Shown in pieces: positions 1-32,000 of a DNA stretch of 32,000 nucleotides. A model generated the notes under the pieces. The model saw only the letters and a list, made by a program, of their open reading frames with translations. It was not told the DNA's origin and made no database searches. The translations under genes and the position numbers were made by a program. The number at the start of each line of letters is the position of its first letter. The first letter of the stretch is position 1. Source of the stretch: Halomicronema hongdechloris C2206 (lineage in GTDB: Bacteria > Cyanobacteriota > Cyanobacteriia > Phormidesmidales > Phormidesmidaceae); the NCBI RefSeq assembly GCF_002075285.3, contig NZ_CP021983.2:4650001-4682000 (forward strand). Direction: 5' to 3'.

Positions 1-442
1 ATCCGTTGCCGCTCGTCCGACTCCATCACCTGGAAGTCTGCCTTCATGATGGCATCGCCGGTGAGGTCGTCATAGAGGGTCCAGGTGTACTCTCGGCCTG
101 GCTCTAGGCCAGGCCCGTTGTAGCGCAAGCGCGGCAGGAAATTGAACAGGTCCACTCGCCAGAGAGAATCGCCGCTGGCCACATCGTGGACTTCTAATGC
201 CTCAATCAGCCCCCCTTGCCAGAGAAAGACCGGGTTGAGATGCCAGATTTCTGGGGAGGTAGTGGCTGGGGCCACCAGACAGAGGTCGCCGCGGGAGCCG
301 CCGGGGCGCACCTTCCCCTGGGGGTAGAGGTGGCCTTTGGGCGCTAGCTATAGTGGTTAGGGAGGCCCCAAGCCAGAGAACCCAATAGCAGATAGCGGCT
401 GAGGCGGAGTTGTGGGAAACGTGACGTGATAAATCTAAACAT
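1..442 (-). pseudogene. DUF928-family secreted protein, N-terminal part (continues past window start); frame broken twice near the N-terminus
   Basis: Minus-strand translation of 1-305 reads GGSRGDLCLVAPATTSPEIWHLNPVFLWQGGLIEALEVHDV...LEPGREYTWTLYDD, the GGSRG-x-C ... P-x-F-x-W pattern I associate with DUF928. ATG at 442 opens a signal-peptide-like MFRFITSRFPQLRLSRYLLLGSLAWG in a second frame. SLTTIASAQRPPLPPGEGAP lies in the third frame. The frame changes fall at G/C runs near 362-372 and 297-309. It is absent from the ORF track because it is broken and runs off the edge. Confidence 0.6.
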
Positions 443-446
443 GGGA

Positions 447-2879
447 TTATCGTCGCATCAAAAACGGCAATCGGTAGAACCAGAGGGTAGCCAGCGGTAG
501 GGCAATGGGCAGAAGCACCAGCCCAGCAACATAGACTTGCAGGCTAATGATGGCATAGAGTAGGGAGCCACTGACTAGGAAGATGCACTGCCGCCGCCGG
601 TGGAGGCTAGTCTGGTCGATTACTTTGCTCAGTAATGCCGCCATTAGTACTAACCACAGGTCGGGCAGGGGCACGACCAAATGGCGGTGGCGAAAGTGGT
701 GAAACAAATAGCCATGGACTTCGCCTCCCAGGAGAACGGTGCTGTTATTGGCAGGAGCCTGGCGCTGACGCCAGTAGGCCATGGCTGCAGGCAGGGGGAA
801 ATTGTCTTCATTGAGTTCGCTGACACCAGCTTCGCCGTATCCCCCTGGCATGATCATCACCACTGCTTGGGGATAGTCCTGCCGCAGCTGCGGGGGTGAG
901 CTTTCTAGGAGCTGCCAAGCCGGTATTTGGCTGTAGAGCCGCTGCGGTGGCAGGGAGTAGTCGACGATGGGATGCAACCAGGTTTGCCCCAGACGATAGG
1001 CACTGGTGGTCACCGAGGCAGGCTGCATGCGGGGAGAGGTTAAGTGGGCTGGTACCGCTTGGTGTCCTTGGGAGAGGTCGACGGATTGGTGGCCTGAGCT
1101 CAGGACGTCAGCCAGGGCCATGAGATAGGCCAGGGGGAGGGGCCAGTCGGGACTATAACGGCTGAGAAGTAGGGGCACTAAGCGCCCCTGGCCAAATAAC
1201 TTGATGTCCCCTTGCCAGCTCCAGTCGGGGTTGCCTAGGGCCGGTAGAGGGGTTAGCCACTGCCCAGTTTGGTCGAGGTAAGTGGCTAGAATAAACCAGA
1301 TATCGTCTTGAGCCGCAGTCTCTAGGGTCTGGGCCAGGATATTGTCGTCACTGACTAAGGGGCGATCTAGAAGATAGTCAATGCTGATGACCGCTGGTTG
1401 CAATTGGGCAGTTTTGTCGACGACCCGCGCCAGATAGCGCCGATCCATGGGCCGGGGGTTGCTAATGTCGGCCCGGATCAGAGAATCATTGTCGATGGTG
1501 ACTAGCAGCAGCTCTGGCGATGCAGCCGGCAGCTGGCCGGTGCGATCGCGGTAGATGGCTTGGCTCCAGAGTCGCTGATCTAGCAAGCCCCGTTGTAGAG
1601 GGGGCAGTAGACTCAGGGTTACCATCACCCCGATCACGGCGACTTCGTAGCGGGTTGGCAGCCAGGCCCGTAGTTGCTGGCGCCAGCCCTTGGGGGCAAT
1701 GCGGTAGAGGGGGGCATCGGGGTGGCGAAACAGGGACGGGACTAAGTGAGCCGAGGGATAGGTGAGGGCATGCTCTAGTTTGAGGGCCTGACTGGCCTGG
1801 ATCAGGGCGGTGTGGACGTCGTCGTGGGCGGCTAGCCGCTGCAGGAAGCGGCGCAGGAATACATGGGCCACTTGGTTATGGACCGGTTCTCGAAAGATGG
1901 CGACCTGGCTCAGGCCTAGGTCGATCAGGGATTCGGCTAGATTGAGGCCGCTGCAGGAGTTGAAGAGGGCAAAGCGCAGGCCCCGTTGCTGGGCGATGGC
2001 TAAGCTGGGGGCCAGTTCGCGAACAGTTAGGGTGACGCCGGGTGCGATCGCAAGTTCCCCGCCGGTCAGGGCCGTCTCATTGCTATGGCCAGCGAACAAG
2101 AGTCCATCCCAGCCCTGGTCAGCGGCAATGGTATTGGCAATTTGGCGTTTCAGCTCACCGCTGTGGCAGCCAGGCTGCCAGCCGACAAACACCACCTCGG
2201 CCAGGCGGTTCAGGGCCCCGATGGCGGCCCGATCGCCAGCGAAATTGAGGCCCGTCTCATCTCCCAGGATGACGAGTAAGCGGGGACGGCGGCGCGGCGG
2301 TGGAGCATTGGCTGGGGCGCGAATCCTAGCCGGTGACCGCACCAAGCGCAACGGATGGACGGCGGCAAACTCGCTGCCAATCTCCCAGCTTTCCCAGGGA
2401 AGGCGGGCCACCTCTAGGGGATGGCAGGTGAGATAGAGATCCACTGGCTGCCCTTGAGCTTGGTGGCCGATCTGGGCGCGAATCTCGAATAGCTCTGGGC
2501 TGCGCAGCCAGCGATGAAAGTCGTAGAGGAGCTGGGCTTCTGCCTCGACTAACCGAGCCGACCAATCCACCGCCGAGGTCAAGCCGCCGCTACTCTGAAC
2601 TCGTCCGCGCAGGGAAGTGGGCGATACTGGCGGGGCCGGGGCCGGATCTTCCAGGTGACGATAGACCTGAAGATAGGCCTGCTGCCAGTGCTGATAGTGC
2701 TGCAGCAACTCAGAGCGCCAGGGTAAGGCTGCCGCTAGATGCTGGCCTTGGCCCCAGGTCAGGTCGAAGAGGCAGGTCTGCTCCACCCGATGCACCTTGA
2801 GGTGGAGGGACGTGGCGGTGGGGGGGATGCGATCGCACGGTAACAACTCAGTATCAGGATCAATATCAATCGATATCAA
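447..2879 (-). CDS. CHAT (caspase-like protease) - CHASE2 sensor membrane protein
   Basis: 810-codon ORF; the track start is TTG at 2879, so the true start is uncertain. The central CHAT module carries a His/Cys dyad context (LLFAGHSNE ... LFNSCSGLN). It is followed by a TM helix, a CHASE2-like extracytoplasmic region (LLLVTIDNDSL...RRYLARVVDK...ISIDYLLDRP) and three C-terminal TM helices. Confidence 0.85.
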   Translation of the reverse strand: MISIDIDPDTELLPCDRIPPTATSLHLKVHRVEQTCLFDLTWGQGQHLAAALPWRSELLQHYQHWQQAYLQVYRHLEDPAPAPPVSPTSLRGRVQSSGGLTSAVDWSARLVEAEAQLLYDFHRWLRSPELFEIRAQIGHQAQGQPVDLYLTCHPLEVARLPWESWEIGSEFAAVHPLRLVRSPARIRAPANAPPPRRRPRLLVILGDETGLNFAGDRAAIGALNRLAEVVFVGWQPGCHSGELKRQIANTIAADQGWDGLLFAGHSNETALTGGELAIAPGVTLTVRELAPSLAIAQQRGLRFALFNSCSGLNLAESLIDLGLSQVAIFREPVHNQVAHVFLRRFLQRLAAHDDVHTALIQASQALKLEHALTYPSAHLVPSLFRHPDAPLYRIAPKGWRQQLRAWLPTRYEVAVIGVMVTLSLLPPLQRGLLDQRLWSQAIYRDRTGQLPAASPELLLVTIDNDSLIRADISNPRPMDRRYLARVVDKTAQLQPAVISIDYLLDRPLVSDDNILAQTLETAAQDDIWFILATYLDQTGQWLTPLPALGNPDWSWQGDIKLFGQGRLVPLLLSRYSPDWPLPLAYLMALADVLSSGHQSVDLSQGHQAVPAHLTSPRMQPASVTTSAYRLGQTWLHPIVDYSLPPQRLYSQIPAWQLLESSPPQLRQDYPQAVVMIMPGGYGEAGVSELNEDNFPLPAAMAYWRQRQAPANNSTVLLGGEVHGYLFHHFRHRHLVVPLPDLWLVLMAALLSKVIDQTSLHRRRQCIFLVSGSLLYAIISLQVYVAGLVLLPIALPLATLWFYRLPFLMRR
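1542..1549. repeat. HIP1 octamer GCGATCGC (one example of at least 18 exact copies in the window)
   Basis: Exact copies are also seen near 2044, 2829, 4407, 4969, 7689, 12071, 12458, 13929, 15492, 16145, 17818, 19000, 21519, 26945, 28959, 29809, 30525 and 31025. Confidence 0.9.
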
Positions 2880-2892
2880 CAGGACGACTGCC

Positions 2893-4213
2893 CTAGCAGA
2901 AATCTGGTTGGAAGCCCAGGGGCGGTAAGGTCAGGATGGTGCCGTCAGGGAATCGCAATGACACCTGGAAGGTCTCCTGCCAACTACCAATGACCTGGGC
3001 ATAGAGATAGTCATCCCCCTCATCATCGGCGAAATAGCGCTCTACCAACAGGGTTTGGTCGTCGGAAATCTGTAGCCCGGCCCCCAACGGTCGAGACTGA
3101 CCCGGCTGCGGTCCCAAAATCACCAGCAGGGTCCATTCTGGATCCCCTGTGGTCCCTGCCAGGGCCCAACTGAGGGCATAGAGCCGCAGCCCTCCCCCAG
3201 CCCAAGAGACATCATGGTAAGCCGCCGCTGCCCCTGAGCCCATAGATAGGCCACGATCGTCTAAAGACTGTAGTAGTGACCCCAGATCATCCAGGGTGGT
3301 GGTGCGCATGGCGGTGGCCAAGTTGGGGGGTGGCAATAGGGTCCAGGCCAGCGATTGGGCTAGGGGATCGAGCTGTTGCCGCAGCCATAGCCCCGTGTTG
3401 ATCACCCCCTGGGACCAGGTCAGATGTGGCGTTGACCTGGGGCCAGGCGGGGGTCTGTCCCCGTTGCACTCCATAGAGCCAACGGGTCCAATCGGGATGA
3501 CTGAGCAGAGCCGCCCCTAGGGACCAGGGCAGCCTGGCCTCCGGTAAGACATCAGCCTGTTGCAGCTGCGGCAATAGCTGTTGTAAGCGGGTCTGGTGGT
3601 TAGCTGTTAGATCGGGGGTGGCGGTCGTGGTCACCGGCAGGGCGGCGGCTTCTAGGCAACGCAGGTATAGCAACAGCTGTTCGCTATCTCGCTCAAACCA
3701 GCTGAGAGGCACTGATAATGCCCAATCTACCTGATGGGAGTCTGGGCCCAATTGCCGTAACAGCTGATCGCGTCGCAGCACGCCCCCTACCCGCGCCGTC
3801 CCTCGATGCTCATCCACTTCCATCCAGACAAATAACTGGGCGGCCCAATCGGGCAATTCCACGGCGGCCTTGGGCAGCGGCAGCACTGAGTCTACCAAGG
3901 TGCCGCTGGTGAGCAGGCAGAGTCGCAGCTCTCCGACTCGCAATCCACAGACGGCGTCAATGGCATGGGCATAGGCCGGATCCTGGAGAGACACCTGGTC
4001 AGTGCCAAGCGCCAACTCTGGAGCCCGTTCCTGCAGCCAACTGGTGAATCCCTGCAGGGCGAGGCCATGCAGATAAATGCGCCACTGCCGCTCTGGGTGA
4101 GGGTCGGCCTGGCTGCGGGTTGCCGCTTGGGCCACTTGGTCTGGGGTAAGCTCCAGGATGTCGGCGTCTAAGCCTTCGTGTTCTAGGTCGATATGGTCGT
4201 CAAAGGCAATCAT
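2893..4213 (-). pseudogene. DUF1822-family protein, split over two frames (frameshift near 3425-3460)
   Basis: ORF 3287..4213 (N-terminal part, credible to about WLYGVQRGQTPAWPQVNA) and ORF 2893..3474 (credible from about HLTWSQGVINTGLWLRQQLDPL to the C-terminus) overlap in frames offset by 1 nt. Joined, they give a roughly 435-aa protein of the cyanobacterial DUF1822 type. ATG at 4213 lies 4 nt after the upstream stop. Confidence 0.7.
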
Positions 4214-4217
4214 GGTG

Positions 4218-5666
4218 TCATCTCCGGCTGTCTAGGTGGCGGCAAAGGGCTACGGTAAACTGGCTGCGATGTTGACTCTGGGTGGTGGCTTCGGTTTCGG
4301 CGGTGGCCATCAGGCTATCCACCCGCTCGGCCAGAGCGGCGTCGATCTGGGCATTCAAGTGGTGCAATCGCTCGGGATCGACATAGGCCTGGGCTAGCTG
4401 TCGGGTGCGATCGCACATCTGTTGCAATAGATGCTGACGAATATCGGCCCGCAGGGCCTTTAACTTCAGCAGGCGGCTGACTTGATACTGCTGGCTGAAG
4501 CCGATTTGCCGGGCAATCTCACCCATGGCCAAGCCGTCGCAGTGAAATAGCCGCAGCGCCTTGAGAAAGGGCTCTATCTTCTCAGGTTGGCGGCGTTGCA
4601 GCCGCGCTAGCCAGGTCTCGATCACCGTGGCGATGGCCTGCTGCAGGCATTGGTCAAATACCTGACGAAAACCAGCTAAAAACTGGGCCGTGTCGTCTTC
4701 CTGCGGGGCAGGAGCTCGCATCCCCTGGGCCACCGCCGCAATTTCGGGCCGATCCAGCGATTCGGTCGGCACCAGCCCGCCCCGCACATGGATGCGGTAG
4801 TGGCGTAGGTAGCTGGCTAAGGCCTGCAACTGACCCAATAAATCGTCCTCAGACAGCTTTTGGGCCAGGGCACGGGGCAACTGCTGGGCCAGGCGTTGGA
4901 GCTGCTCTGGGGTAGGGGGCACACAGCCCCCGCCGCCGCCGGCCTGTCGCTGCTGGATGCGATCGCGACGATAGACCCCATGATAACTCTGCAGCAACTG
5001 TTGGGCTTGGGTGACCTCTGTCGGGCTGAGGCCATGGAACTCCCCCAAAATTTTCGATACCTGCTTCACGGAGGTATCGTTGAGAATGGCCCAGTCGCTG
5101 ACCAAGTAGACCCCGTGCTGCAGCAAGAAGCGGTTCAGGTCACGATGGTGGCGCACTCGCCGGGTCACCCAAGTGCTGAGACTGGCTCGCTGCGGATCAA
5201 AACTCCGCAGAATGTCAGCCGCCAAAGAACAATAGGTTTCACTGCTAGAGTTGGCCAAGGGCTCCAGGGGATAGGTCTCATCCAGCACGAAGGGAAATAA
5301 CTCATAGCGGGTAAACCCATAGCGTTCGCCAAAGCGTGCCTCTAAATCCTGACAAACCCACTCCACCTGATTGGACACATAGCACCGGAGGCAGCCCTCG
5401 GCCACCGTAATTTGATCAGCCGCCGCCTGCCACTGGCTCAACAGATAGGCTTGAATGGCGGTATCCGTTGCCGTTTCGGCACCCTTGGTTAGATGCTGGG
5501 CCAGATAGGTCTTGGCCGTGGGCAATAGGTGGGGGCTAATGCGGCTACTCGCGGTGATGCGGACCAGTCGCCAGTATTTGGATGGAATCTCAGAAGGACT
5601 ATCCATAGGAGACAGACTACGCATCCTGGGCGGAGCATTCAACACCATAGTAGGAGAGAGGGGCAT
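4218..5666 (-). CDS. sigma-70 family-like protein (atypical, long)
   Basis: 482-codon ORF with a C-terminal region-4-like HTH (LRLFHCDGLAMGEIARQIGFSQQYQVSRLLKLKALRADIRQ). It is the first gene of a same-strand, tightly spaced four-gene cluster. The start could be one of several early Met codons. Confidence 0.75.
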   Translation of the reverse strand: MPLSPTMVLNAPPRMRSLSPMDSPSEIPSKYWRLVRITASSRISPHLLPTAKTYLAQHLTKGAETATDTAIQAYLLSQWQAAADQITVAEGCLRCYVSNQVEWVCQDLEARFGERYGFTRYELFPFVLDETYPLEPLANSSSETYCSLAADILRSFDPQRASLSTWVTRRVRHHRDLNRFLLQHGVYLVSDWAILNDTSVKQVSKILGEFHGLSPTEVTQAQQLLQSYHGVYRRDRIQQRQAGGGGGCVPPTPEQLQRLAQQLPRALAQKLSEDDLLGQLQALASYLRHYRIHVRGGLVPTESLDRPEIAAVAQGMRAPAPQEDDTAQFLAGFRQVFDQCLQQAIATVIETWLARLQRRQPEKIEPFLKALRLFHCDGLAMGEIARQIGFSQQYQVSRLLKLKALRADIRQHLLQQMCDRTRQLAQAYVDPERLHHLNAQIDAALAERVDSLMATAETEATTQSQHRSQFTVALCRHLDSRR

Positions 5667-5963
5667 GGACTATCCTGACAGGGGGTGAACCGCCAGCAGA
5701 TATCTCTGACGGCCATGAGCCTATGCACTGTTGCCGGAGGGGTGACAGCCGTTAGGCATTTTTCTAGGGATAAACTAAAGTATTGACTGGGCTACTCTGG
5801 AGCTGGGTCAATGACTCTGAAGTTTTTTCGGCAAAATACTTTAGGGTTAAGTGAATGGCTGAGGCTATCATCAGCCAGCACCGCCATCCCAGGGTTACCC
5901 TGAATCGATGACCTGGAAGCCACTGTAACCGCTAAACCTAGAGCGGTTGCTTCAGCCGGGATA

Positions 5964-6629
5964 ATGAGCGATACGTCAGCCTTTATTGCAGGATGTGCCA
6001 CCACTGGGGCGGCAGCGTTGATGCTGCTGTTAGCTCGCATGAGCTTAGATGAGACCTCGCCCCGCCCTGCCACTGAGTCCGAGCCCTACATTAACGAGGC
6101 CATTACTCCGATACCGGCACCGCCGCCACCCACGGTAGATACCCCTGACACCAATCCCCTAGAGCAAGAGCTGGAACAACAGCAGGAGTTGATTCAGCGG
6201 TTAGAAACCCAACTAGGAGAACAACAACAGCAAATTGATGACTTAGAAGAGCAACTGCGCCGTCAAGAAGACGACGCCCGCACTCTCCTAGCCCGTCTAG
6301 ATGACTATCAGCACTCTGTGGATAGCCTGGCATCCCAGCAGAATCGCTTAGAAGGGGCCCAGCAGACGGCTGGTCAGACGCAGACGTCCTTGGTCTGGGT
6401 GGGAGCTGGTATTGTCATGATCGTGTTGCTGGGGGGCGCCGCCCTGATGGTGGTGATCGTTGTGTTTGTGGCTAGTCGACGACGAGAGTCTCGGGCATCC
6501 CAGGCGCCTATGTATCCAGTCAATGTGCCCCCCACCGCTTACCATCCCTACTACCAGCAAGAGTTGATCACCCCCTATCCCTTGCGTCCTTCCCCCATGG
6601 GCACACCGCCCTCGGATTATCCCCGTTAA
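5964..6629 (+). CDS. hypothetical membrane protein with Q/E-rich coiled coil and Pro/Tyr-rich tail
   Basis: 221-codon ORF. It has an N-terminal hydrophobic helix (AFIAGCATTGAAALMLLLA), a heptad-like QELEQQQELIQRLETQLGEQQQQIDDLEEQLRRQEDD segment, a second TM helix (LVWVGAGIVMIVLLGGAALMVVIVVFVA) and a PxY-rich C-terminus. No family was recognised. Confidence 0.6.
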   Translation: MSDTSAFIAGCATTGAAALMLLLARMSLDETSPRPATESEPYINEAITPIPAPPPPTVDTPDTNPLEQELEQQQELIQRLETQLGEQQQQIDDLEEQLRRQEDDARTLLARLDDYQHSVDSLASQQNRLEGAQQTAGQTQTSLVWVGAGIVMIVLLGGAALMVVIVVFVASRRRESRASQAPMYPVNVPPTAYHPYYQQELITPYPLRPSPMGTPPSDYPR

Positions 6630-6676
6630 GTCCTATCTGGCATTGGCCACATCCTATGGCAAAGGTGGCTGTCCCC

Positions 6677-8089
6677 TTAAAACTCCACATTGTCGGGGGT
6701 GCGGGGAAAGGGAATCACATCGCGAATATTGGCCATGCCAGTCATGAACTGAACTAATCGCTCAAAACCCAGGCCAAAACCGGCATGGGGTACGGTGCCA
6801 TAGCGGCGCAGATCCAGGTACCACCAGTAATCTTCCAAGGGCAGACCGGCTGTCTGAATCCGCCGTTCCAGGACTTCTAACCGTTCTTCCCGCTGAGACC
6901 CGCCAATGATCTCACCCACTTTGGGGGCCAGTACATCCATAGCTCGCACGGTGTTGCCATCCTGATTGAGGCGCATGTAAAAGGCCTTAATCGCCGCTGG
7001 ATAGTCGGTGACGATGACAGGCTTCTTAAACACCTCCTCGGTCAGATAGCGCTCATGTTCCGACTGCAGATCAACTCCCCACTCTACCGGGAACTCAAAG
7101 GAGCGATCGGCTTTTGCCAACAGGGTCACCGCTTCGCTGTAGGTAATGCGCTCGAACTCATGGGCCAGAATATTCTCCGCCGTGGCCAGGACACTGGTGT
7201 CGATGCGTTGGTTGAAGAAGTCCATATCCTCAGGGCATTGTTCCAGGACAGTGCGAAACACATGTTTGAGGAAGGCTTCAGCCCAGTCCATAGCACCATC
7301 AAGGTCACAGAAGGCCATCTCCGGCTCTACCATCCAAAATTCGGCCAAATGCCGCGAGGTATTAGAATTTTCAGCCCGGAAGGTGGGGCCAAAGGTGTAG
7401 ACATTAGTAAAGGCCATGGCCATGATCTCGGCTTCCAGTTGGCCACTCACGGTCAGATAGGCGGGTTTACCAAAGAAATCTTGGCTGAAGTCAACGGCTC
7501 CGGCTTGGGTGTGGGGCAACTGCTCTAGATCGAGACTGGTGACCGTAAATAGTTCGCCGGCCCCTTCACAGTCACTGGCCGTCAGAATCGGGGTGTGCAC
7601 CCAGAGAAACCCCTGATCCTGGAAAAACTGATGAATGGCCTGGGCACAGGCATTGCGGACCCGAAACACTGCTCCCAGGGTATTGGTGCGCGATCGCAAG
7701 TGGCCTAGAGTTCTGAGGAACTCGAAGGAATGCCGCTTCTTTTGCAGGGGATAGGTCTCGGGATCGGCCGCACCAAACACCGTAATTTGGCTGGCCTGGA
7801 CTTCCACCCGTTGTCCCTTACCCGGTGACTCCACCAGGGTGCCCGAGATGCTCACCGAGGCGCCGGTGCTCAACTGTTTGAGGATAGACTCATAGTCGGG
7901 CAACTCAGCATTCACTACCACCTGTAGCCCGGCCATAGAGGAGCCGTCATTGATATTGATAAATGTCAGCCCCTTGGTGGATCGCCTTGTCCGCACCCAC
8001 CCTTGCAGGGTGATAACCTCTCCCGGTTGACCCTGCTGCGAAATGTCTCGAATCCGTTGCGTCATTGGCAGTTTCACTGGCTCAGTCAC
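6677..8089 (-). CDS. asnS: asparagine--tRNA ligase
   Basis: 470-aa ORF with class IIb aaRS motifs throughout: [32 protein letters not shown] and [27 protein letters not shown]. Confidence 0.97.
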
Positions 8090-8479: not shown

Positions 8480-8791
8480 TTGCTTCTGACTATGCCAGAT
8501 ACCCCTGCCAAAAGCTCACCAGGCAGAGAGACCTCTGCCCAGTTGCAGCAATACACTGCTCTGGAATTGGCCCAGGCCCTAGCCGAGAAGCTGGCCATTG
8601 AGCCCAATGATTGGCATCGCTTGAATCGCAACCGTAAGGTGCGAGCCAAGGAGCAATTGGCTGCAGCCTTGGTCTATCTGCTGAGCGATCAGCCAGAGGA
8701 AGCGTTAATGCGAACCCAACAAGCCAGTGGTTGGCTAGACCACAGCTTGACAGCGCCCCCCTGCCCTACCCATGGGCCACGGACTCGGTAA
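8480..8791 (+). CDS. conserved-looking small hypothetical protein
   Basis: 103-codon ORF (alternative ATG at 8492), divergent from 8454. Its composition is protein-like (LELAQALAEKLAIEPNDWHRLNRNRKVRAKEQLAAALVYLLSDQPEEAL). The 3' end overlaps the convergent gene by 26 nt. Confidence 0.5.
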   Translation: MLLTMPDTPAKSSPGRETSAQLQQYTALELAQALAEKLAIEPNDWHRLNRNRKVRAKEQLAAALVYLLSDQPEEALMRTQQASGWLDHSLTAPPCPTHGPRTR

Positions 8792-9233
8792 AGCGGGGGA
8801 ATTTAGTGCGACGACGCACGCGCTTGCGCAGGTGGAGCTCGCATCCCCCCTGCATCCAGGTGACGTCATCAAAAACTTGGTAGAGAATATAGAGCCCGCG
8901 ACCGCATTCCTCCACGGAGTGGTTGCAATCACCATCAAGCTCCTTGTGGCGGCAGCAGGGATAGGAAAATCCACTGCCTTGATCGGTAATAATCCACCAG
9001 TAATCGTCACCGTTTACGGTAAATCTGACCGATATTTTCTTGCCAGGATCCAGTTTATTGCCGTGCTTAGCGGCATTGACTAGGGCTTCTTGCAACCCCA
9101 GCCGAACTTCTGCCTGCCACGGATCAGGGATGCCTGCCAAGAGCAGATCCAAAATGGGACAGAGATAGAGGGTCGATACAAAGCTGAGGTTATCCCATTT
9201 GCAGTTGGCCGGTGGTGGAGAAAGCGCTAACAC
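8766..9233 (-). CDS. anti-sigma regulatory factor / Ser-Thr kinase of the RsbW-SpoIIAB (HATPase_c) type
   Basis: N-box EALVNAAKHGN and G-boxes DQGSGF / GRGLYIL are present. The GTG start at 9233 is preceded by GGAGGA 7 nt upstream. Confidence 0.75.
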   Translation of the reverse strand: MLALSPPPANCKWDNLSFVSTLYLCPILDLLLAGIPDPWQAEVRLGLQEALVNAAKHGNKLDPGKKISVRFTVNGDDYWWIITDQGSGFSYPCCRHKELDGDCNHSVEECGRGLYILYQVFDDVTWMQGGCELHLRKRVRRRTKFPRFTESVAHG

Positions 9234-9239
9234 AGAGGA

Positions 9240-10071
9240 TCCTCCAAAAACTGTGAGAACAAAATGGCCAAATGAGTTTAGTTAATGTTTGTCAGGGCTA
9301 TAAAGAGCAGGAATAAGGCAAGGTTGGACACGAGATGAATCGTTACGGCGCTTATCTAAGGCGCTTATCTAAGGCGCTTATACAGCTCTCACTGAATAGG
9401 CTAAAGCTTAGGATACTAAAGCTTGATAATAGGGGTGTCACTACTCAAGTTGAGTCTGGAGAAATAGGGAATAATGCCTGAGCATTGGCAACCCGAAAAA
9501 GCGCAACCCAAGGATTATCTCTGCAGAGAGTCGTGTTGAATTGAATCGGTGAAAGGCTGGCATTGGTCTTAGGTGACACGTGATTGACAAAGATACACTG
9601 CTCTAGCCGTTTGGATCAGGGAGATAGCTGGTTTAGCCGGTCTTTCGAGAAGAGGGTGATCAGCCCTAGAGGGCCATCGCAAGCGTCATATCAGATGTTA
9701 CCTGTCATCGACGTTGACATTTGTTACCAAGGCACTAAGAAATACTACAGGCTCCGAAAAAATTTGAATCTGACAGCCATGAATTACTGCCGTAGTTTAA
9801 AGGATGAATTTTAAAGCAGCCTATCCAGTTCAACTGATTGGCTACACAGATACCTTTCTATTTTATCAGCATATCCGTTTAGGCTAAGCCCTATCTGAAA
9901 CAAGTACTGGATCTCTTAGCTTTGCTGACGTAGACACCGATGTTCAGGTCATGCCTCTCCTGAAATTGGCCCAAAACAGTTCATGCGTATTGTTCACCCG
10001 TGGGGACAATCAGGGCTGTTTACTGGCTCACTAGTCACTGGCTCGCTATACACTACTAGAGCCCCCTTCTA
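9240..10071. other. about 830-bp AT-richer gene-free region upstream of the ECF transporter genes
   Basis: No convincing ORF is present; the only track ORF (9584..9814) starts at TTG and has no protein-like features. The region is visibly less GC-rich than its flanks and contains short tandem repeats. Confidence 0.6.
9347..9383. repeat. 13-nt tandem repeat GGCGCTTATCTAA, about 2.8 copies
   Basis: Read directly: ggcgcttatctaa ggcgcttatctaa ggcgcttatac. Confidence 0.85.
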
Positions 10072-18652: not shown

Positions 18653-19981
18653 TCATAGGGTGTAGGTGAATGCATCCACTAACATACCAGGCGCCCAGGT
18701 GCCGCCCAGGCGGCGATGATCGTAGGTGCTGACCTGGGCAATCCACTCCGACTCCTGGGTCAGGTTTACCAAATTATCGCCCCAAAAGTGATAGAGACTC
18801 TCATCGAAGCGCAGGTTCTCGATCGGGGCCACGATCTGGCCGTTTGCTACCCAGAAACAGGCATAGCGGGTCATGCCGGTGAGGTATCCCTGGGGCCGAT
18901 CGCTCCAGTTCAGGTAATGCAGGTTGGAGACATATAGGCCCGTGTCCAGGGCTGCCAGCGCGTTTTCCCTGGGTAGGGTGCCCCCGGCTAAGACTTGCGA
19001 TCGCATCGCCTCGGATGCCGCCGCCGCCGTCGAGGCCAGGCCATATTCTCGGGCCGAGCGAGCACTGACCAGCTCATTGATCAGTCGTCCCGCTTGAATT
19101 ACCGGCAGCGTCATGGCAGCCAGGTCACCATCCTGATTGAAGCGGGGCACCTGGCCCTGGCTGAAGTCCTCCCGCAGGTGAATCTGCCCAGACAGCCGTC
19201 GCTCCCCCCGCTGTAGCAGCCCCAGGGGACTGCTGCCCCGGCGCAGGGCCCCAGCCCCGACTCCGCTGCGGCCCACCATCGTGACCAGATCCGCCACTGC
19301 CGCCGGTTCCAGGTAGGTGCGATAGGTCCCCGGAGCCATGACCTTAGCCGGATGGGCCAGCTGAGCGAGGTGCTCCCTGGCTGCGGTCACCTGCTGCTGG
19401 TACTCATCGGCGTCCCAGTGCTGGCCGGCGTACATTCGCTTGATGGCCTTGCCATCGGCTGTAAACAGGGAATAGTCCAGGGTGAAGGTATTCCGCTCAA
19501 ACCAATGGCGCTGACCGGCAGAATCGGCATAGGCCCGAATCAACCGGCCTCCAGCGTAGAAGCCGACGGCATCCAGCCCGGCCAGAGGTTGCAACACCGT
19601 CGGCACCACCGCTTCGCAGCAGAGCAATTGCCCCGGTTGCCGATCCCGGCTAGAGTCTCCTCCCGTTGGCAACACCTGGTAGGGATCCGGCGGTAAATCG
19701 GGGAGCTCCTGGCGCAGCTCCTCTAGGGTCGCCATGGCCATGGCCTGATCCAGGGCCAGCTCTCCTGTAAAGGGCAGTGTCTGACTCAGGGTGCGCTGGC
19801 CAGCCATCAGGGTCAGGGTCAACCGGCCATCCACCACCTGGCCACTCTGGCGCACCCTGGCCCGGTTAAAGCGAGTGAATTGGCTGGTTTCAGCCACTAG
19901 ATTGAGCCGGATGTGCTCTTGGGGCTGCAGCTGTGACACCAGGGCCTCGACCAGGCGATAAAAAACCGGTTCCCACGCCAT
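18653..19981 (-). CDS. pmbA: TldE/PmbA-family metalloprotease subunit
   Basis: 442-aa PmbA_TldD-fold protein directly downstream of tldD. Its ATG overlaps the tldD TAA by 1 nt (TAATG at 19979-19983). Confidence 0.85.
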   Translation of the reverse strand: MAWEPVFYRLVEALVSQLQPQEHIRLNLVAETSQFTRFNRARVRQSGQVVDGRLTLTLMAGQRTLSQTLPFTGELALDQAMAMATLEELRQELPDLPPDPYQVLPTGGDSSRDRQPGQLLCCEAVVPTVLQPLAGLDAVGFYAGGRLIRAYADSAGQRHWFERNTFTLDYSLFTADGKAIKRMYAGQHWDADEYQQQVTAAREHLAQLAHPAKVMAPGTYRTYLEPAAVADLVTMVGRSGVGAGALRRGSSPLGLLQRGERRLSGQIHLREDFSQGQVPRFNQDGDLAAMTLPVIQAGRLINELVSARSAREYGLASTAAAASEAMRSQVLAGGTLPRENALAALDTGLYVSNLHYLNWSDRPQGYLTGMTRYACFWVANGQIVAPIENLRFDESLYHFWGDNLVNLTQESEWIAQVSTYDHRRLGGTWAPGMLVDAFTYTL

Positions 19982-21535
19982 TAGCCCCCGCCCCCAAATA
20001 CCTTAATCTCCTCAAAAGCTGCCACCGGAGAGCCATGGCCCACCCGGATTAATTGATTCGGTTCCCCCTTGCCACAGAAAGGAGTGCCAAAGGCCTGCCA
20101 GGTGTCTCCATTGCCCACCTGCACCAGGCTGTGCCAAAACTGGGGCGTCGTGGCCCGATAGTTGGGGTTGCGCAGGGTTTCCGCCAGTCGTCCTTGGCGA
20201 ATGCGCTTGCCATATTCACAGCCAAACTGAAACTTATGGCGCTGATCATCGATGGACCAAGAGCGATTCGCCTCCATATAGACGCCATCCTCGATGGTGG
20301 CGATGATCTCGGCCCAGGAGCGATCCCCCGGCTCCAGGTTAATATTGGCCATGCGATCGATGGCCGGCCGATTCCAAGATGTGGCCCGAGCGCAGGCGAC
20401 CCCCGGTAACCCAGAGCGCACTTGGCTCTCCCGGCCGCCCAGGCCCCGCTCTAACACCCCCTGGCGAATCAGATACTGGCGTTCGGGCCCCCACCCCAGT
20501 GTCATCAAAGCCATAGCTAGCTAGCTGGTGCTCTAGGGTGGGGTCGAAGGTGACGTTTAGCAGAGGCGAACCGTATTGCAACTGGCCAAAGTCCTCGGGT
20601 TTAACAAAGCTGCCGCCGGCATAGTTGCGCTCATCCCCCAGAATCCGATCCAGTTCCAGGGGATGGCCGATGCTCTCATGGATTTGCAGCAGCATCTGGT
20701 CCGGGGCCAGCACCAGGGTACTGGTCATCGTCGGGCACTCTGGGGCGGTCAATAACTCCACCGCCTGCTCTGCCGCCTGCTGCACCGCCTGCCAGAGGTC
20801 CTCTGCCTCTGCCAGGTGTTCCCAGCCGCCTTGGTAGTAGTGGGCATAGGGGCCATTGTGATGACGGGTCTGCACCACCGCCCCAGCTTGGGCCGTGGCC
20901 CCGAAGTGGGTGCCAAAGTAGGTAAATTGCTGCTGCACCCGGGTGCCACTGCTGCTGAGCAGCCAAATGTCCGTAGTTTGGCTGTGCAGACTGGCGATGG
21001 TCTGCACAATCTGCTCTGACACGTTTAGGCCTTGGCAGATCTGAGCCAGCAAGGCATTGATGTCGCCGCCGCTGATCTGGTCGGGGGGTTGGAGCACCGA
21101 AGAGGTATAGAGCCCCAATTCCCGCGGCCGCATGCCCGAGGAAAAAGCCTGCAGCTGCCAGGGAGCAGCGGCCTGGGCTTGTTGATAGGCCTGGTGGGCC
21201 GCCGCCTGCAGCCCCGTCACGGTGAGCTGATTGCTGGCGGCATAGCCCAGTTGCCCCGCTACCAATACTTCCACCATGGCGCCCTGATCCCGGTAGCGGT
21301 GGTTCTGTTGGGGGCGGCCATCCCGTAGGGTGCGCTGGCTGCCAGTGGTGCGCTGGGCTCGCATGCCAATCCAGTCGGCGGGCAGATCCAAGATCGAAAG
21401 CACCTCGTCGAAGAGGGCCATCGGGTCAACCGTGGAGGCAGGCGTGACTGTCACAGGGGCAAGGACCATGGGAAATGCAGCGTTTCCCATTGTAGGTAGG
21501 TTGGCGATGGAATCGGGATGCGATCGCATGGCCAC
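19981..21535 (-). pseudogene. tldD: TldD metalloprotease, reading frame broken once near 20481-20497
   Basis: ORF 20339..21535 carries the HExxxH motif (HESIGHPLE) and is credible to ...ASYGFDDTGVG. ORF 19981..20514 is credible from ...ERQYLIRQGVLERGLGG to the C-terminus (FCGKGEPNQLIRVGHGSP). The frames differ by 1 nt and meet at the run gggcccccacccc. Confidence 0.85.
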
Positions 21536-24432: not shown

Positions 24433-25051
24433 ATGTTAGAAAGCATCATTTGGATTCTGTTGATGGGGTTTTTCGTCGGGCAAATCGCTCGGCGACTTCG
24501 AGCTCCAGCATTGGTGGGCATGGTGCTGGTGGGTATTCTCCTCGGTCCCCAGGTAGGTAATGTGATTGGCCCGGAGATCTTAGCAGTCGCAGATTCCCTG
24601 CGGACCATCGCGGTGATGGTGATTTTGATGAAGGCAGGCCTGGGGCTTGATCGCGACAAGCTGATCCAGCAAGGATCGGTGGCAGTGCGACTGGGATTTT
24701 TGCCGGCGGCTTGTGAAGTAATCGCGGTTGCCCTGGCTGCCATCTGGCTGTTTCAGTTTGATCTGGCCACGGGGCTGTTGTTGGGCTGTGTGATCGGGGC
24801 TGAATCGCCAGCAGTCATTGTCCCGGGGATGTTGCGGCTCAAAAGCTTGGGTTGGGGAGTCAAAAAAGGGATTCCCGATGCCATTTTGACCGGGAGTGCA
24901 CTGTCGGATGTGCTGCTGGTCGGGGTGTTGGTTTTGGCCATCGGCACCCTGGTGGGGCGATCTCTGGGCTGGTATCTGTCTACATTGGGGAGTAACTGGA
25001 CTTGGCAGGAGCGGCTGTTTTCTGCTGCCGGGAAATTCCGCTAAAGCGACG
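24433..25051 (+). pseudogene. cation:proton antiporter (CPA-type Na+/H+ exchanger) remnant
   Basis: The N-terminal helices are typical of the family (GFFVGQIARRLRAPALVGMVLVGILLGP, ILMKAGLGLD, GAESPAVIVP), but only about 200 codons are present where about 400 are expected. The middle of the protein is missing. The tail WQERLFSAAG changes frame at the A run 25033-25035 and continues as NSAKATVQAAIGAIPL, which as I recall is a C-terminal helix motif of this family. Confidence 0.6.
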
Positions 25052-25495
25052 GTGCAGGCGGCAATCGGCGCGATTCCCCTAGAGGATGTATTAGTCGGAT
25101 CAGTGTCCCAAGCGGTTGCTGGAAACCAGCCCCTGGCCGGTAGTGATGGTGGAGGCTTAGGCAGCTGCCGTATTCCCCCGGGCAAGGAATCCTTTATCTA
25201 CCATGCCCACAGCAACGAAGAAGAGTGGATTTACATTCTCTCTGGGCACGGCATCGCCGAGATCGGTGACGCCGAGCAGGAAGTGGGGCCTGGCGACTTC
25301 ATGGGCTTTAGCCTACCTCAGCTGGCCCACCACCTGCGCAACCCCGGCGACCAAGACCTGGTGTATTTAGTGGGCGGTGAGCAAGTCAATATCGATGTCG
25401 GTACCTTTCCCCGCCATGGCAAACGGGCCATCCGTGAGGGCAGCAGGGCTTATCTGGTGGATGAATCAGCCCTAAGCGACTTTTGGCAAAGCTAA
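25052..25495 (+). CDS. cupin domain protein (start uncertain; N-terminus apparently derived from the antiporter remnant)
   Basis: Cupin motifs: PPGKESFIYHAHSNEEEWIYILSGHG and GDFMGF...AHHLRNPGDQDLVYLVGG. There is no in-frame ATG upstream of the domain outside the antiporter. GTG at 25052 is the first candidate start after the antiporter-frame stop. Confidence 0.55.
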   Translation: MQAAIGAIPLEDVLVGSVSQAVAGNQPLAGSDGGGLGSCRIPPGKESFIYHAHSNEEEWIYILSGHGIAEIGDAEQEVGPGDFMGFSLPQLAHHLRNPGDQDLVYLVGGEQVNIDVGTFPRHGKRAIREGSRAYLVDESALSDFWQS

Positions 25496-29093: not shown

Positions 29094-29216
29094 AAAAATT
29101 CAAAATTCAAAGCTTGTCCTCGCGAAGGCGGGGATTCAAAATTCAAAATTCAAAACTCAAAATTCAAAACTCAAAACTCAAAACTCAAAACTCAAAACTC
29201 AAAACTCAAAACTCAA
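29094..29216. repeat. heptanucleotide tandem repeats (AAAAYTC), about 2.5 + 12 copies around a GC-rich 22-nt core
   Basis: aaaaattcaaaattcaaag - cttgtcctcgcgaaggcgggg - attcaaaattcaaaattcaaaactcaaaattcaaaactc(aaaactc)x5 aa. Confidence 0.9.
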
Positions 29217-29342
29217 CCCTTCACCTTTCCCAAAGCTTTCCTAAACCTGAATAACCTCTCCCGGCTCAGAACTATATCCTGATGTCGTTACCGGAATGGA
29301 AACCTGCCCATGCGCCCCGCCGCCCACTTCCTCCACCTCGCT
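29217..29342 (+). repeat. copy 2 of the TPR-CHAT gene leader plus first about 10 codons
   Basis: cccttcacctttcccaaagctttcctaaacctgaataacctctcccggctcagaactatatcctgatgtcgttaccggaatggaaacctgcccATGcgccccgccgcccac is near-identical to 30030-30140. Similarity ends at about 29342. Confidence 0.8.
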
Positions 29343-29416: not shown

Positions 29417-29620
29417 ATGCCCTTAAATCTAACCATCGAATATCCTGACACCTTGCCGGATGCCCTAGGTCGCACCCGTGACCAGTTTGAGCAGGAAGCC
29501 AAATGGGCAATGGCGGTCAAGCTATTTGAGTTGAAGCGGTTATCTTCTGGCATGGCGGCCTCTCTAATCGGAGTCGATCGCATCACCTTGAACTCACCAA
29601 CACTTTCAGCCTGCTGTTGA
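29417..29620 (+). pseudogene. UPF0175-family antitoxin-like gene, 3'-truncated
   Basis: MPLNLTIEYPDTLPDALGRTRDQFEQEAKWAMAVKLFELKRLSSGMAASLIGVDRIT fits UPF0175. The last roughly 10 codons are antisense to a PIN fragment. No partner toxin gene follows. Confidence 0.6.
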
Positions 29621-30004: not shown

Positions 30005-30215
30005 CGTCCCTTCACCCTTTACCCTTCGCCCTTTCCCGCTTTCCAAAGCTTTCCTAACCCTGCATAAGCTCTCCCGGCTCAGAGCTATATCCTGATGTCG
30101 TCCCCGGAAGGAAAACCTGTCCATGCGCCCCGCCGCTCATCTCCTCAGCCTCGCCACCCTCACCGCCCTGTTTATTCCTGTTATCCAGGTCGCTGCCACC
30201 CAGATTCCGGAGACA
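30005..30215 (+). repeat. copy 3 (the functional one) of the leader plus signal-peptide region
   Basis: It shares the pyrimidine-rich stretch, ttccaaagctttcctaac, ctcccggctcagagctatatcctgatgtcgt and ATGcgccccgccgc with copies 1 and 2. Confidence 0.75.
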
Positions 30216-32000
30216 TTTCAAAAGCCTCAAGATCCAGAGCAACCACAAGGCAATCCATTACTCCTAGATCAACAGCCCCTCTCAGAACGTCAGGCAGAGG
30301 CGAACAGATTACGTCAGCAAGGTTTTGAACAGTACAAAGCCAGACAGTTTCAGGCAGCACGTGAGTCCCTAGAGCAAGCGCTGGTCATTTATCGAGATTT
30401 GGAAGACCGGAAACGAGAAGGACAAATGCTGGGCAGTTTAGGGATTATCCACAGCAATCTAGGGCAATATCGACAGGCCATTAGCTATTACGAGCAGCAA
30501 CTGTTGGTTACCCGCGAAATTGGCGATCGCGTAGGAGAGAGTGATGCTCTCGGCACCTTGAGCAATGTGTACCAAACTTTGGGAGACGATCAACAGGCGA
30601 TTAACTTGCTGGAACAAGCGTTATCTGTTGCTCGGGAAATTGGCGATCGTCTGAGAGAAGGAAGTTCTCTTAATGGGCTAGGGGTTGCCTACAAAGATCT
30701 TGGTAATTATTGGCAGGCCATCGCCTTCTATGAGCAAGCTTTGGCAATTTATCGCGAAATTGATGAACTTTTCGGTGAAGCAGAAGTTCTAGGAAATCTG
30801 GGTGTAGCTTACGGACTGCTGGGCGATCATCGACAAGCAATTAACCTCCACGAGCAGCAGCTAGCCCTTCACGAGCAGCAGCTAGCAATCACTGGCGACA
30901 TCTATCATCACCGTGGATTAGGACGTGCTCTTAGCAGTTTAGGCAATGCTTACTACAGTCTTGGCAACTATCAACAAGCTATTGGTTTTTATGAGCAAGG
31001 ATTAGCTGTTAAACGTCAAACTGGCGATCGCCACGGCGAAGGAAACACCCTGGCAAATTTAGGTAGACTATTTGACGCCCAAGAACAGCCTGAATTGGCC
31101 ATTGTTTTTCTTAAGGCTTCGGTCGAAGTACGCGAGTCCATTCGCAGTGGTATGCGAGACCTCGATCCAGACCTACAAAAATCTTATTTAGATACTGTAG
31201 CGAGCACATATCGCCTGCTAGCTGACCTCCTTCTCCAACAAGACCGCATTATGGAAGCCCAGCGGGTACTGGACTTGCTGAAGGTGCAGGAACTCGACGA
31301 CTACATTCGCGGCGTTGAGCGTACCAGCGAAACCGAAGCAGGGGTTGACTTTCTGCGGCCTGAGGAGACGATTTTGGCCCGGTACGATGCTTTGCAAGAA
31401 TCCGCCATTGCTGCTGGCCAAGAACTCGAAGACCTCAAGGCTATTCCCCGAGAACAACGTAGTGAAGAGCAGGTACAGCGCATTGCCCAACTCACGGACT
31501 TACTGGACGACATCAACGGCGACTTCCGCGACTTTGCCCGCAGTCCCGAAATTCTCAAGCTGATTGATGAATTGAACTTCGAAGCTCGGGAAGCCAGCCT
31601 CAGTCTCAATCAACTCGATCGCCTTCGCGACGAACTCCAGCAGCTCAACGCCGCCATCTTCTATCCCCTCATCCTGGACGATCGCCTGGAGTTGGTGATT
31701 ACCGTGCCCGACTCGCCCCCGCTGCGACGAACTGTTCAGGTGTCTCGCGAGGAGCTAAACGCGGCAATTCTAGAATTCCGCACCGCACTCACCCACCCAG
31801 GTTCTGACGCGGAAACGCCTGCCCAACAGCTTTACGACTGGCTGATCCGTCCTCTGGAAGCTGACTTAGGGGCAGCCGGAGTCGAAACCCTCATCTACTC
31901 CCCCGATGGGCAACTGCGCTACATTCCCCTCGCTGCCCTGCATGACGGTGAGCAATGGCTGATCCAGCAGTACCGCATCAACAACATCACCGCCGAATCT
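30123..32000 (+). CDS. secreted TPR-repeat CHAT-domain protein, 5' part (open to the window end)
   Basis: I translated 626 codons from ATG 30123 to 32000 by hand and found no stop; the ORF is absent from the track because it has no stop in the window. It has a signal peptide (MRPAAHLLSLATLTALFIPVIQVAA), about 7-8 TPRs (LGxLGxxYxxLGxYxQAIxxYEQxLxIxREIGDRxGE) and the start of a CHAT domain (LYDWLIRPLEADL...LIYSPDGQLRYIPLAALHDGEQWLIQQYRI). Confidence 0.9.
   Translation, partial: MRPAAHLLSLATLTALFIPVIQVAATQIPETFQKPQDPEQPQGNPLLLDQQPLSERQAEANRLRQQGFEQYKARQFQAARESLEQALVIYRDLEDRKREGQMLGSLGIIHSNLGQYRQAISYYEQQLLVTREIGDRVGESDALGTLSNVYQTLGDDQQAINLLEQALSVAREIGDRLREGSSLNGLGVAYKDLGNYWQAIAFYEQALAIYREIDELFGEAEVLGNLGVAYGLLGDHRQAINLHEQQLALHEQQLAITGDIYHHRGLGRALSSLGNAYYSLGNYQQAIGFYEQGLAVKRQTGDRHGEGNTLANLGRLFDAQEQPELAIVFLKASVEVRESIRSGMRDLDPDLQKSYLDTVASTYRLLADLLLQQDRIMEAQRVLDLLKVQELDDYIRGVERTSETEAGVDFLRPEETILARYDALQESAIAAGQELEDLKAIPREQRSEEQVQRIAQLTDLLDDINGDFRDFARSPEILKLIDELNFEAREASLSLNQLDRLRDELQQLNAAIFYPLILDDRLELVITVPDSPPLRRTVQVSREELNAAILEFRTALTHPGSDAETPAQQLYDWLIRPLEADLGAAGVETLIYSPDGQLRYIPLAALHDGEQWLIQQYRINNITAES

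Follow-up and report, generated by a model that had tools for sequence, protein, structure and literature searches.

The first 5730 positions of a 32,000-nt stretch of the Halomicronema hongdechloris C2206 genome (the window, in full) contain four genes on the reverse strand, in the order sigma-like, DUF1822, CHAT-CHASE2 and DUF928-like (Table 1). The four genes are closely spaced. The stop codon of the sigma-like gene (4220–4218) and the ATG of the DUF1822 gene (4213) are 4 nt apart; the stop codon of the DUF1822 gene (2895–2893) is separated by 13 nt from the TTG start codon of the CHAT-CHASE2 gene (2879), and the stop codon of the CHAT-CHASE2 gene (449–447) by 4 nt from the ATG of the DUF928-like gene (442). 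These gaps and positions had been given by an earlier reading of the letters of the window (hereafter the sequence-only reading), and were exact on re-check. Its four same-strand genes are also real; however, the DUF1822 gene is split, the DUF928-like gene carries two frameshifts and only about 147 codons of the latter are located in the window. The four genes most likely form one operon, driven by a non-canonical bipartite promoter element 5′ of the sigma-like gene. We propose that they constitute a membrane sensor-caspase cassette controlling the sigma-like factor, one instance of a widespread cyanobacterial module; on the present evidence, our confidence in this proposal is evenly balanced between acceptance and doubt.

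The third gene encodes an 810-residue protein, which is 100% identical to XM38_044170. As the sequence-only reading had called, it matches both Pfam CHAT (PF12770; 26.3 bits against a cut-off of 24, residues 246–369) and Pfam CHASE2 (PF05226; 49 bits against a cut-off of 26.3, residues 418–745), and most of its homologues have a precomputed PF12770 match. The protein is composed of one conserved N-terminal domain (nt 2807–2280, at the position of EACC2), the CHAT/caspase domain (nt 2279–1695) and the CHASE2 domain (nt 1628–645). The N-terminal domain is about 180 residues in size and contains many invariant residues in an alignment of 38 sequences; the layout of the whole protein agrees with the published EACC2-caspase-CHASE2 architecture string. 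The His/Cys dyad, which had been described as intact, is formed by His265 in FAGHS (nt 2087–2085) and Cys309 in FNSCSG (nt 1955–1953). Both residues are invariant in the alignment of 38 homologues, and their codons were checked. Hydropathy analysis revealed three transmembrane (TM) segments at the C-terminus (residues 733–804) and one weaker hydrophobic stretch ahead of CHASE2 (around residues 412–432). This predicted topology, one plus three TM segments, fits a cytoplasmic protease and a periplasmic CHASE2 domain. The trans-envelope layout suggested before (cytoplasmic caspase, CHASE2 outside, secreted partner) is in line with it, and was proposed already in 2012 (PMC3501461).

The N-terminal domain of the CHAT-CHASE2 protein also contains one LRGR motif (residues 91–93, nt ~2609–2601, reverse strand), of which Arg91-Gly92 is invariant in 38/38 proteins. 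This motif could be an autoprocessing site.

The DUF928-like protein has a hydrophobic N-terminus of the signal-peptide type, in agreement with the signal peptide assigned to it earlier, a PP..GGSRG..C motif, a β-rich middle and a helical tail. The ∼147 codons reconstructed from the window are 79% identical to the intact 216-residue orthologue of the closest relative, L001 (a Logan contig). Against Pfam DUF928 (PF06051, cut-off 26 bits), the window reconstruction gave no match and the L001 orthologue scored 19.2 bits. At the level of the family, DUF928 matches with E ≤ 0.01 were found in 33 of 68 members, the best with an E-value of 5e-8. The earlier DUF928 call thus holds only below threshold, as the window copy has no match and its orthologue stays under the cut-off. 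Judged by sequence, the fourth protein is a divergent DUF928-like branch.

For the DUF1822 gene, the NCBI annotation covers one 308-residue N-terminal fragment only (XM38_044190). This fragment scored 128.7 bits against Pfam DUF1822 (PF08852); the joined, frameshift-corrected sequence scored 145.4 bits and covers model positions 1–359 of 370. The DUF1822 call of the sequence-only reading is above the Pfam cut-off, for a gene that is not intact in the assembly. The AlphaFold2 model of an intact DUF1822 orthologue (predicted local distance difference test score, pLDDT, 83) comprises one N-terminal helical and β-rich region, a helical middle and one C-terminal immunoglobulin (Ig)-like β-sandwich. 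Within the model, a single internal loop, residues 295–305, is of low confidence. It carries Arg302 (numbering of the L001 orthologue), which is present in 48 of 49 DUF1822 proteins within the motif [M/L]R-S-P-x-E-E-F; from the conservation and the model, we infer that the loop is a candidate protease site. The possibility of a TRADD-N domain in DUF1822, raised by 'DUF1822 family' entries in a 2021 supplement, was rejected, as hhalign against the published alignment was negative. When the DUF1822, sigma-like, CHAT-CHASE2 and DUF928-like alignments were compared with 32 bacterial TRADD-N sequences by hhalign, the probability was at most 0.5%.

The open reading frame (ORF) of the sigma-like gene encodes 482 residues; the NCBI start at 5606 gives 462 residues. 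The protein contains one sigma4-like helix-turn-helix (HTH), LFHCDGLAMGEIARQIGFSQQYQVSRLLKLK, and one sigma2-like stretch, WVTRRVRHHRDLNRF; it has a long N-terminal extension, and the sigma2-like and sigma4-like parts are separated by an insert of about 150 residues. In the AlphaFold2 model (pLDDT 89.9), the protein is all-helical, with one disordered loop (residues 296–301) after the conserved VRGG...ESLD motif. All 548 sigma-like homologues are annotated as hypothetical. Hhalign of the sigma-like family with RpoE aligned the HTH (E 0.04), and the profile of the sigma4-like region gave DeoR (E 0.16) and the sigma4 region of SigF (E 0.61) in the PDB; all of these are below significance. The profile of the sigma2-like region gave no match in the PDB. 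Based on its sequence features, we regard the 482-residue protein as a candidate divergent sigma factor of the extracytoplasmic function (ECF) type.

To place the cassette among its relatives, CHAT-CHASE2 proteins were collected by scanning one genome per species with a pattern, which yielded at least 581 relatives. Gene neighbourhoods were counted at the best 80 of these loci, essentially all cyanobacterial, using purpose-built family hidden Markov models; the denominators given below are the loci with enough flank. Full-length homologues of the CHAT-CHASE2 protein number more than 1000 and are essentially all cyanobacterial, and the module is found mostly in filamentous species. All four genes occur in the same order in 36 of 67 species-representative loci, so the conservation of the quartet, for which the sequence-only reading had suggested a neighbourhood search, was confirmed by that search. 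The CHAT-CHASE2 and DUF928-like genes alone are present in another 17 of the 67. The DUF928-like gene lies directly downstream of the CHAT-CHASE2 gene in 64 of 77 loci, most often overlapping its end by 8 or 4 nt, and the sigma-like and DUF1822 genes lie upstream of it in 39 of 68. The latter two occur together in 39 of 41 loci and commonly overlap by 4 nt. The arrangement is far beyond chance: dozens of species repeat the order, the strand and the overlap of stop and start codons. It is the secreted DUF928-like protein, rather than the sigma pair, that accompanies the sensor most constantly. The L001 proteins share ∼84% identity with those of the window, and the synteny is the same, including AsnRS; the L001 quartet is uninterrupted (485, 438, 798 and 216 residues). 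One Oscillatoria genome has two paralogous quartets, and the sigma-like/DUF1822 pair was also found beside tetratricopeptide repeat (TPR) genes without CHAT-CHASE2.

Several cassette neighbourhoods (L086 of Oscillatoria sp. FACHB-1407, L087, L101/L110 and L102) contain recurrent TPS-domain proteins of the two-partner-secretion type, subtilisin-like peptidases and Uma2 genes, and the motif described below stands ahead of some of these genes.

The regions 250 nt upstream of the sigma-like genes share one promoter-like motif. TGCATAA is present in 17 of 39 regions, versus at most 10 in dinucleotide shuffles, and the 8-mer TGCATAAG in 14 of 39, versus at most 5. Alignment of the sites gives a bipartite element, AACTGCATAAG(T)-N11/12-AGAAATAT(A), with the consensus TGCATAAG-N11/12-AGAAATAT. 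A position weight matrix (PWM) was built from 20 sites that precede sigma-like genes elsewhere than in this genome and applied to both strands of the loci (1.2 Mb). At 24 bits or more, it gave 45 matches versus 0 in the reversed sequences; at 20 bits or more, it gave 72 versus 3. All but one of the 45 matches (44/45) lie no more than 450 nt ahead of an ORF on the same strand. Where a sigma-like gene is present, the motif stands ahead of it in 19 of 42 loci and ahead of the CHAT-CHASE2 gene in 1 of 42, which fits a single operon promoter; where no sigma-like gene is adjacent, it stands ahead of the CHAT-CHASE2 gene in 8 of 38. Many of the other genes preceded by the motif encode proteins with signal-peptide-like N-termini, and of 23 such proteins that were scanned, TPRs are present in 13 and a CHAT domain in 3. 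The motif, and through it the connection of the cassette with TPR and TPR-CHAT genes, is new here; a literature search for the motif returned primer-type matches only. ECF sigma factors usually autoregulate, and the sigma-like factor is therefore the obvious candidate for the protein that reads the motif.

The copy of the motif ahead of the sigma-like gene in the window (5730..5694, reverse strand) is degenerate, with a score of 10.2 bits; the homologous L001 site scores 16.2 bits. Another copy, at 30058, lies 29 nt before the ATG at 30123, which opens one long ORF. The product was among the 23 proteins scanned; it is read as a TPR and CHAT protein from its translation, and its gene is a candidate member of the regulon. 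One more copy (29245–29281, forward strand, 15.0 bits) is located inside a 125-nt partial duplicate, in which a truncated ORF starts at 29311. The copies in the window score 10–15 bits with a PWM derived from genomes that are more AT-rich than the host; support for them comes from their positions, not from their scores. A pattern written after the sites had been seen matches only the sites at 30058..30094 and 5698–5727, where the expectation from shuffles is 0. Metagenome contigs searched with the exact pattern add little: the 23 matches are about the number expected by chance, and only about 5 of them are near cassette-type genes. Scanning positions 1–6700 for the sigma-70 promoter and terminator consensus gave matches not above those in shuffles, and Rfam and tRNA scans of the window gave no match.

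Two further features were noticed around the duplicate. A tandem heptamer array, (AAAACTC/AAAATTC)n, lies directly before it at ∼29122–29230. Between 29350 and 29870, both strands carry short ORFs that resemble broken toxin-antitoxin pieces, including one PIN-like start, MYLIDTNIWLERLL, and one small antitoxin-like ORF (29417..29620).

Table 1. Features of the four-gene cassette and of the second motif-bearing locus in the window
Feature	Position	Strand	Basis
Promoter-like bipartite motif CAGTGCATAGGCTCATGGCCGTCAGAGATATCTGCTG	5694..5730	-	PWM 10.2 bits; 28 nt before ATG 5666
Sigma-like gene, 482 aa	4218..5666	-	ORF; TIGR02937 sub-threshold
DUF1822 gene, one +1 frameshift	2893..4213	-	Joined protein 145.4 bits on Pfam DUF1822
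DUF1822 ORF fragments, overlapping	4213..3287 (308 aa) and 3474..2893 (193 aa)	-	ORF calls
CHAT-CHASE2 membrane caspase-like sensor (predicted), 810 aa, XM38_044170	447..2879	-	Pfam CHAT and CHASE2
DUF928-like protein, predicted secreted, 5′ part of gene	1..442	-	Three-frame translation; extends past window edge
Second promoter-like motif copy CCCTGCATAAGCTCTCCCGGCTCAGAGCTATATCCTG	30058..30094	+	PWM 15.4 bits
TPR protein gene (predicted), hydrophobic N-terminus and CHAT start	30123..32000	+	Translation; extends past window end
Partial duplicate of motif and first codons of TPR-CHAT gene	29217..29341	+	Direct repeat, 85% identity

The analysis shows which genes are present and how far they are conserved, the invariance of the dyad, the topology, and the enrichment and placement of the motif; from these data, we infer the direction of signalling, the substrate of the protease and the reader of the motif as follows. 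Together with the DUF928-like partner, to which it is coupled in translation, the CHASE2 domain would sense a cue from the periplasm or the envelope, and sensing would switch on the cytoplasmic caspase-like domain. The protease would then cleave a cytoplasmic partner, for which DUF1822 is the best candidate, at the [M/L]R-SP-x-EEF loop. Cleavage may free or activate the sigma-like factor, which would transcribe its own operon and the motif-bearing genes, mainly those of signal-peptide-bearing TPR and TPR-CHAT proteins, including the gene at 30123.

The module typifies a kind of system that is already known from computational descriptions but is uncharacterised. Asplund-Samuelsson et al. reported in 2012 one metacaspase-CHASE2 membrane protein of Trichodesmium erythraeum, in which one and three TM helices flank CHASE2 and the predicted topology makes the protease cytoplasmic and the sensor external (PMC3501461). 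Like the protein studied here, it has an N-terminal caspase homologue and a C-terminal CHASE2 domain; that paper deals with a single architecture, without sigma-like, DUF1822 or DUF928-like partners. Kaur et al. described in 2021 proteins composed of EACC2, caspase and a variable C-terminus, for example CHASE2, as well as a neighbourhood of EACC2-caspase, ECF sigma and DUF1822 genes; they proposed that a stimulus activates the caspase and that the sigma factor provides the output (PMC8195603). Their system resembles the present one in the constant N-terminal domain followed by caspase and a CHASE2/TM C-terminus, and in the sigma-like and DUF1822 neighbours in the same order. Their source data include one Fischerella neighbourhood with the same four-gene order, in which the downstream gene is labelled 'TM+beta_rich+TPRs' (PMC8195603). 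Different from the family studied here, which is about 440 residues in length and has no TRADD-N match by hhalign, the Fischerella DUF1822 protein is a 204-residue TRADD-N+TPR protein. The text of Kaur et al. does not discuss the downstream secreted protein, a promoter motif or a regulon. The coupling to the DUF928-like protein, the promoter-like motif with its candidate targets and the Arg loop of DUF1822 as a candidate cleavage site are the additions made here. As far as computational work goes, the cassette was not undescribed, since descriptions exist from 2012 and 2021. The sequence-only reading knew of no experimentally defined role for the four components, and our literature search brought up no experimental study of these four families.

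The closest experimental precedent is Craspase of type III-E CRISPR systems, in which the TPR-CHAT protease Csx29, acting with Cas7-11, cleaves Csx30, a protein that binds and inhibits the ECF-type CASP-sigma (Strecker et al. 2022, PMC10028731). In both systems, a CHAT-family protease is encoded beside an ECF-type sigma, or sigma-like, protein and a non-canonical cytoplasmic partner. In Craspase, experiments have shown that sigma activity changes when the partner is cleaved in response to a signal. The input differs: it is RNA recognition by a CRISPR effector in Craspase and a membrane CHASE2 sensor here, and the Rfam scan of the window found no CRISPR repeat family. We know of no similarity between Csx30 and DUF1822, the two not having been compared directly. 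The proposed logic is the same as that of RseA (with DegS and RseP) and RsiW, in which an envelope signal acts through proteases to remove a sigma inhibitor and to release an autoregulated ECF sigma regulon. Those systems use serine and site-2 metalloproteases and a membrane-spanning anti-sigma factor, whereas here the sensor is carried by a caspase-fold protease and DUF1822 is soluble and without an anti-sigma domain.

Several observations weigh against a cassette that controls a sigma factor through DUF1822. With TIGR02937 (cut-off 42.9 bits), the sigma-like protein scores 23.8–24 bits, and matches with E ≤ 0.01 are limited to 5 of 54 members of its family. The protein has no Pfam sigma match (Sigma70_r2/r4), and in a Foldseek search of the PDB with its model, the best E-value is 0.7 and four sigma-A chains have E-values of 1.4–4.4. 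In all, Pfam, NCBIfam, PDB profiles (full-length and per domain), hhalign and jackhmmer with RpoE, and Foldseek gave no significant link to sigma factors. Because these searches show at best an HTH of the sigma4 type, 'sigma-like' is a reasonable label, membership of the family not being demonstrated. Of the earlier sigma-70-like call, at best the sigma4-like HTH region stands; the protein fails all curated thresholds and has no significant structural match. As for DUF1822, Foldseek gave only weak Ig-like sandwiches (ApaG, RhoGDI and SoxZ; E ∼7e-3) and no anti-sigma domain, and hydropathy analysis gave no TM segment. A known anti-sigma fold was rejected on these generic Ig-like sandwiches, and the fold lends no support to the earlier suggestion that DUF1822 may be anti-sigma-like.

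The genomic evidence has exceptions as well. The sigma-like/DUF1822 pair is not adjacent to CHAT-CHASE2 in 27 of 68 loci. At loci without the pair, the upstream gene often encodes a large TPR-CHAT or TPR protein (L019, L036, L041, L046 and L063; L004 and L048), which suggests an alternative partner set for the CHAT-CHASE2 and DUF928-like core. A motif of 20 bits or more precedes no more than 19 of 42 sigma-like genes, and the window's own copy is weak (10 bits). Taken together, the mechanism put forward by the sequence-only reading is reasonable and partly supported; it is in essence the published hypothesis (PMC8195603) and has a precedent for a CHAT protease acting on a sigma inhibitor (PMC10028731), but sigma identity, the anti-sigma fold and the constancy of the pair are unsupported or weak.

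The last point on that side concerns the integrity of the cassette. Compared to L001, the window has three single-base +1 insertions, at ∼3429 in the DUF1822 gene (within 3405–3440) and at ∼362 and ∼307 in the DUF928-like gene. They are confined to about 1.75 kb of these two genes, and none is found in the 3.9 kb of the other two. Such clustering would be in line with the cassette being a decaying remnant in C2206, with real frameshifts, no DUF1822 or DUF928-like protein made, and the pathway off or deregulated. The NCBI annotation of the 308-residue DUF1822 fragment alone agrees with such decay, and we found no second, independent assembly of C2206. On the other hand, the ratios of nonsynonymous to synonymous substitution rates (dN/dS) versus L001 are 0.125 for the sigma-like gene, 0.11 for CHAT-CHASE2, 0.16 and 0.09 for the two DUF1822 fragments and 0.03 for DUF928-like. 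The interrupted genes are thus as constrained as their intact neighbours; the low dN/dS in every fragment suggests that the frameshifts are sequencing errors or very recent, and any inactivation would have to be very recent too. One of the insertions is at a CCCC run. Within the same window, one gene of the TldD/PmbA metallopeptidase family (19981–21535, reverse strand) is also split by a frameshift, into 20339..21535 and 19981..20514, and adjoins one intact paralogue (18653..19981); this suggests assembly errors. Weighing both sides, we consider decay somewhat unlikely. Programmed frameshifting was rejected, since the closest orthologue is uninterrupted at the same positions.

Separately, the ORF of one Na+/H+ exchanger (24433–25044, forward strand) covers Pfam model positions 5–161 of 375 and overlaps one cupin-domain ORF (24896..25495). 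It is probably truncated or frameshifted.

The same parts may also be wired in another way, in which the caspase-like domain would process itself or the sigma-like protein, the latter as activation of a pro-sigma factor, and DUF1822 would serve as adaptor or scaffold. The long N-terminal extension and large insert of the sigma-like protein, together with its disordered loop after VRGG...ESLD, are compatible with such processing, as is the invariant LRGR motif in the N-terminal domain of the protease itself. Activation by autopeptidase activity was proposed by Kaur et al. (PMC8195603), and the absence of an anti-sigma fold from DUF1822 points in the same direction. However, the joint occurrence of sigma-like and DUF1822 genes in nearly all loci counted for the pair, often with a 4-nt overlap, is like that of sigma/anti-sigma pairs, and the nearly invariant Arg of DUF1822 is placed in a flexible loop. 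We judge the alternative wiring to be unlikely.

It was also considered that the module could be primarily a conflict or programmed-cell-death system, in which an envelope insult, such as phage or toxin, would trigger the caspase-like effector to degrade many proteins and the sigma-like protein would only tune expression. Kaur et al. class the EACC2-caspase systems as apoptosis- or immunity-like in multicellular bacteria (PMC8195603), and the preference of the module for filamentous cyanobacteria, in neighbourhoods rich in TPR-CHAT, TPS, Uma2, NACHT and TIR genes, accords with that class. Nevertheless, tight coupling to a transcription-factor-like protein and the shared promoter-like motif indicate a transcriptional output, and a primary role in cell death appears quite improbable to us. 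That the four genes are neighbours by chance, with no functional link, has nothing in its favour beyond the absence of experiments, and the conservation data refute it: 36 of the 67 species-level loci, from several cyanobacterial orders, agree in gene order, strand and overlapping junctions. Its probability is negligible.

A sensor-caspase cassette with transcriptional output can be stated in one stronger form. The sigma-like protein would be a highly divergent but true alternative sigma factor, gated by the membrane caspase-like sensor, and would read TGCATAAG-N11/12-AGAAATAT, a type of promoter not described before, for its own operon and for a regulon of secreted TPR and TPR-CHAT proteins in filamentous cyanobacteria. 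We put this form forward tentatively, as a possibility about which we are more doubtful than confident. To our knowledge, cyanobacterial caspase homologues are many and their physiological roles essentially unknown; if the stronger form is true, it would be the first defined physiological pathway for one of them. It would also extend the Craspase-type principle, a CHAT protease controlling an ECF sigma factor, from CRISPR immunity to envelope sensing. The module is common, with the at least 581 relatives found, and its logic, from sensor through protease to transcription factor, is simple and testable.

Near the cassette, one HATPase_c_2 protein, of the class of RsbW-type anti-sigma kinases, is encoded at 8766–9233 (reverse strand); we saw no evidence of a link between this protein and the cassette. 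The gene is syntenic in L001, where it lies beside one DUF6439 gene. In positions 9001–10000 of the window, the GC fraction falls to 0.457, versus 0.55–0.64 around it. Farther along, one TIR-GUN4 fusion of 288 residues (14711–15577, forward strand) adjoins a putative endonuclease of the Uma2 family (13892–14605, reverse strand); these are domain types of the conflict neighbourhoods of Kaur et al.

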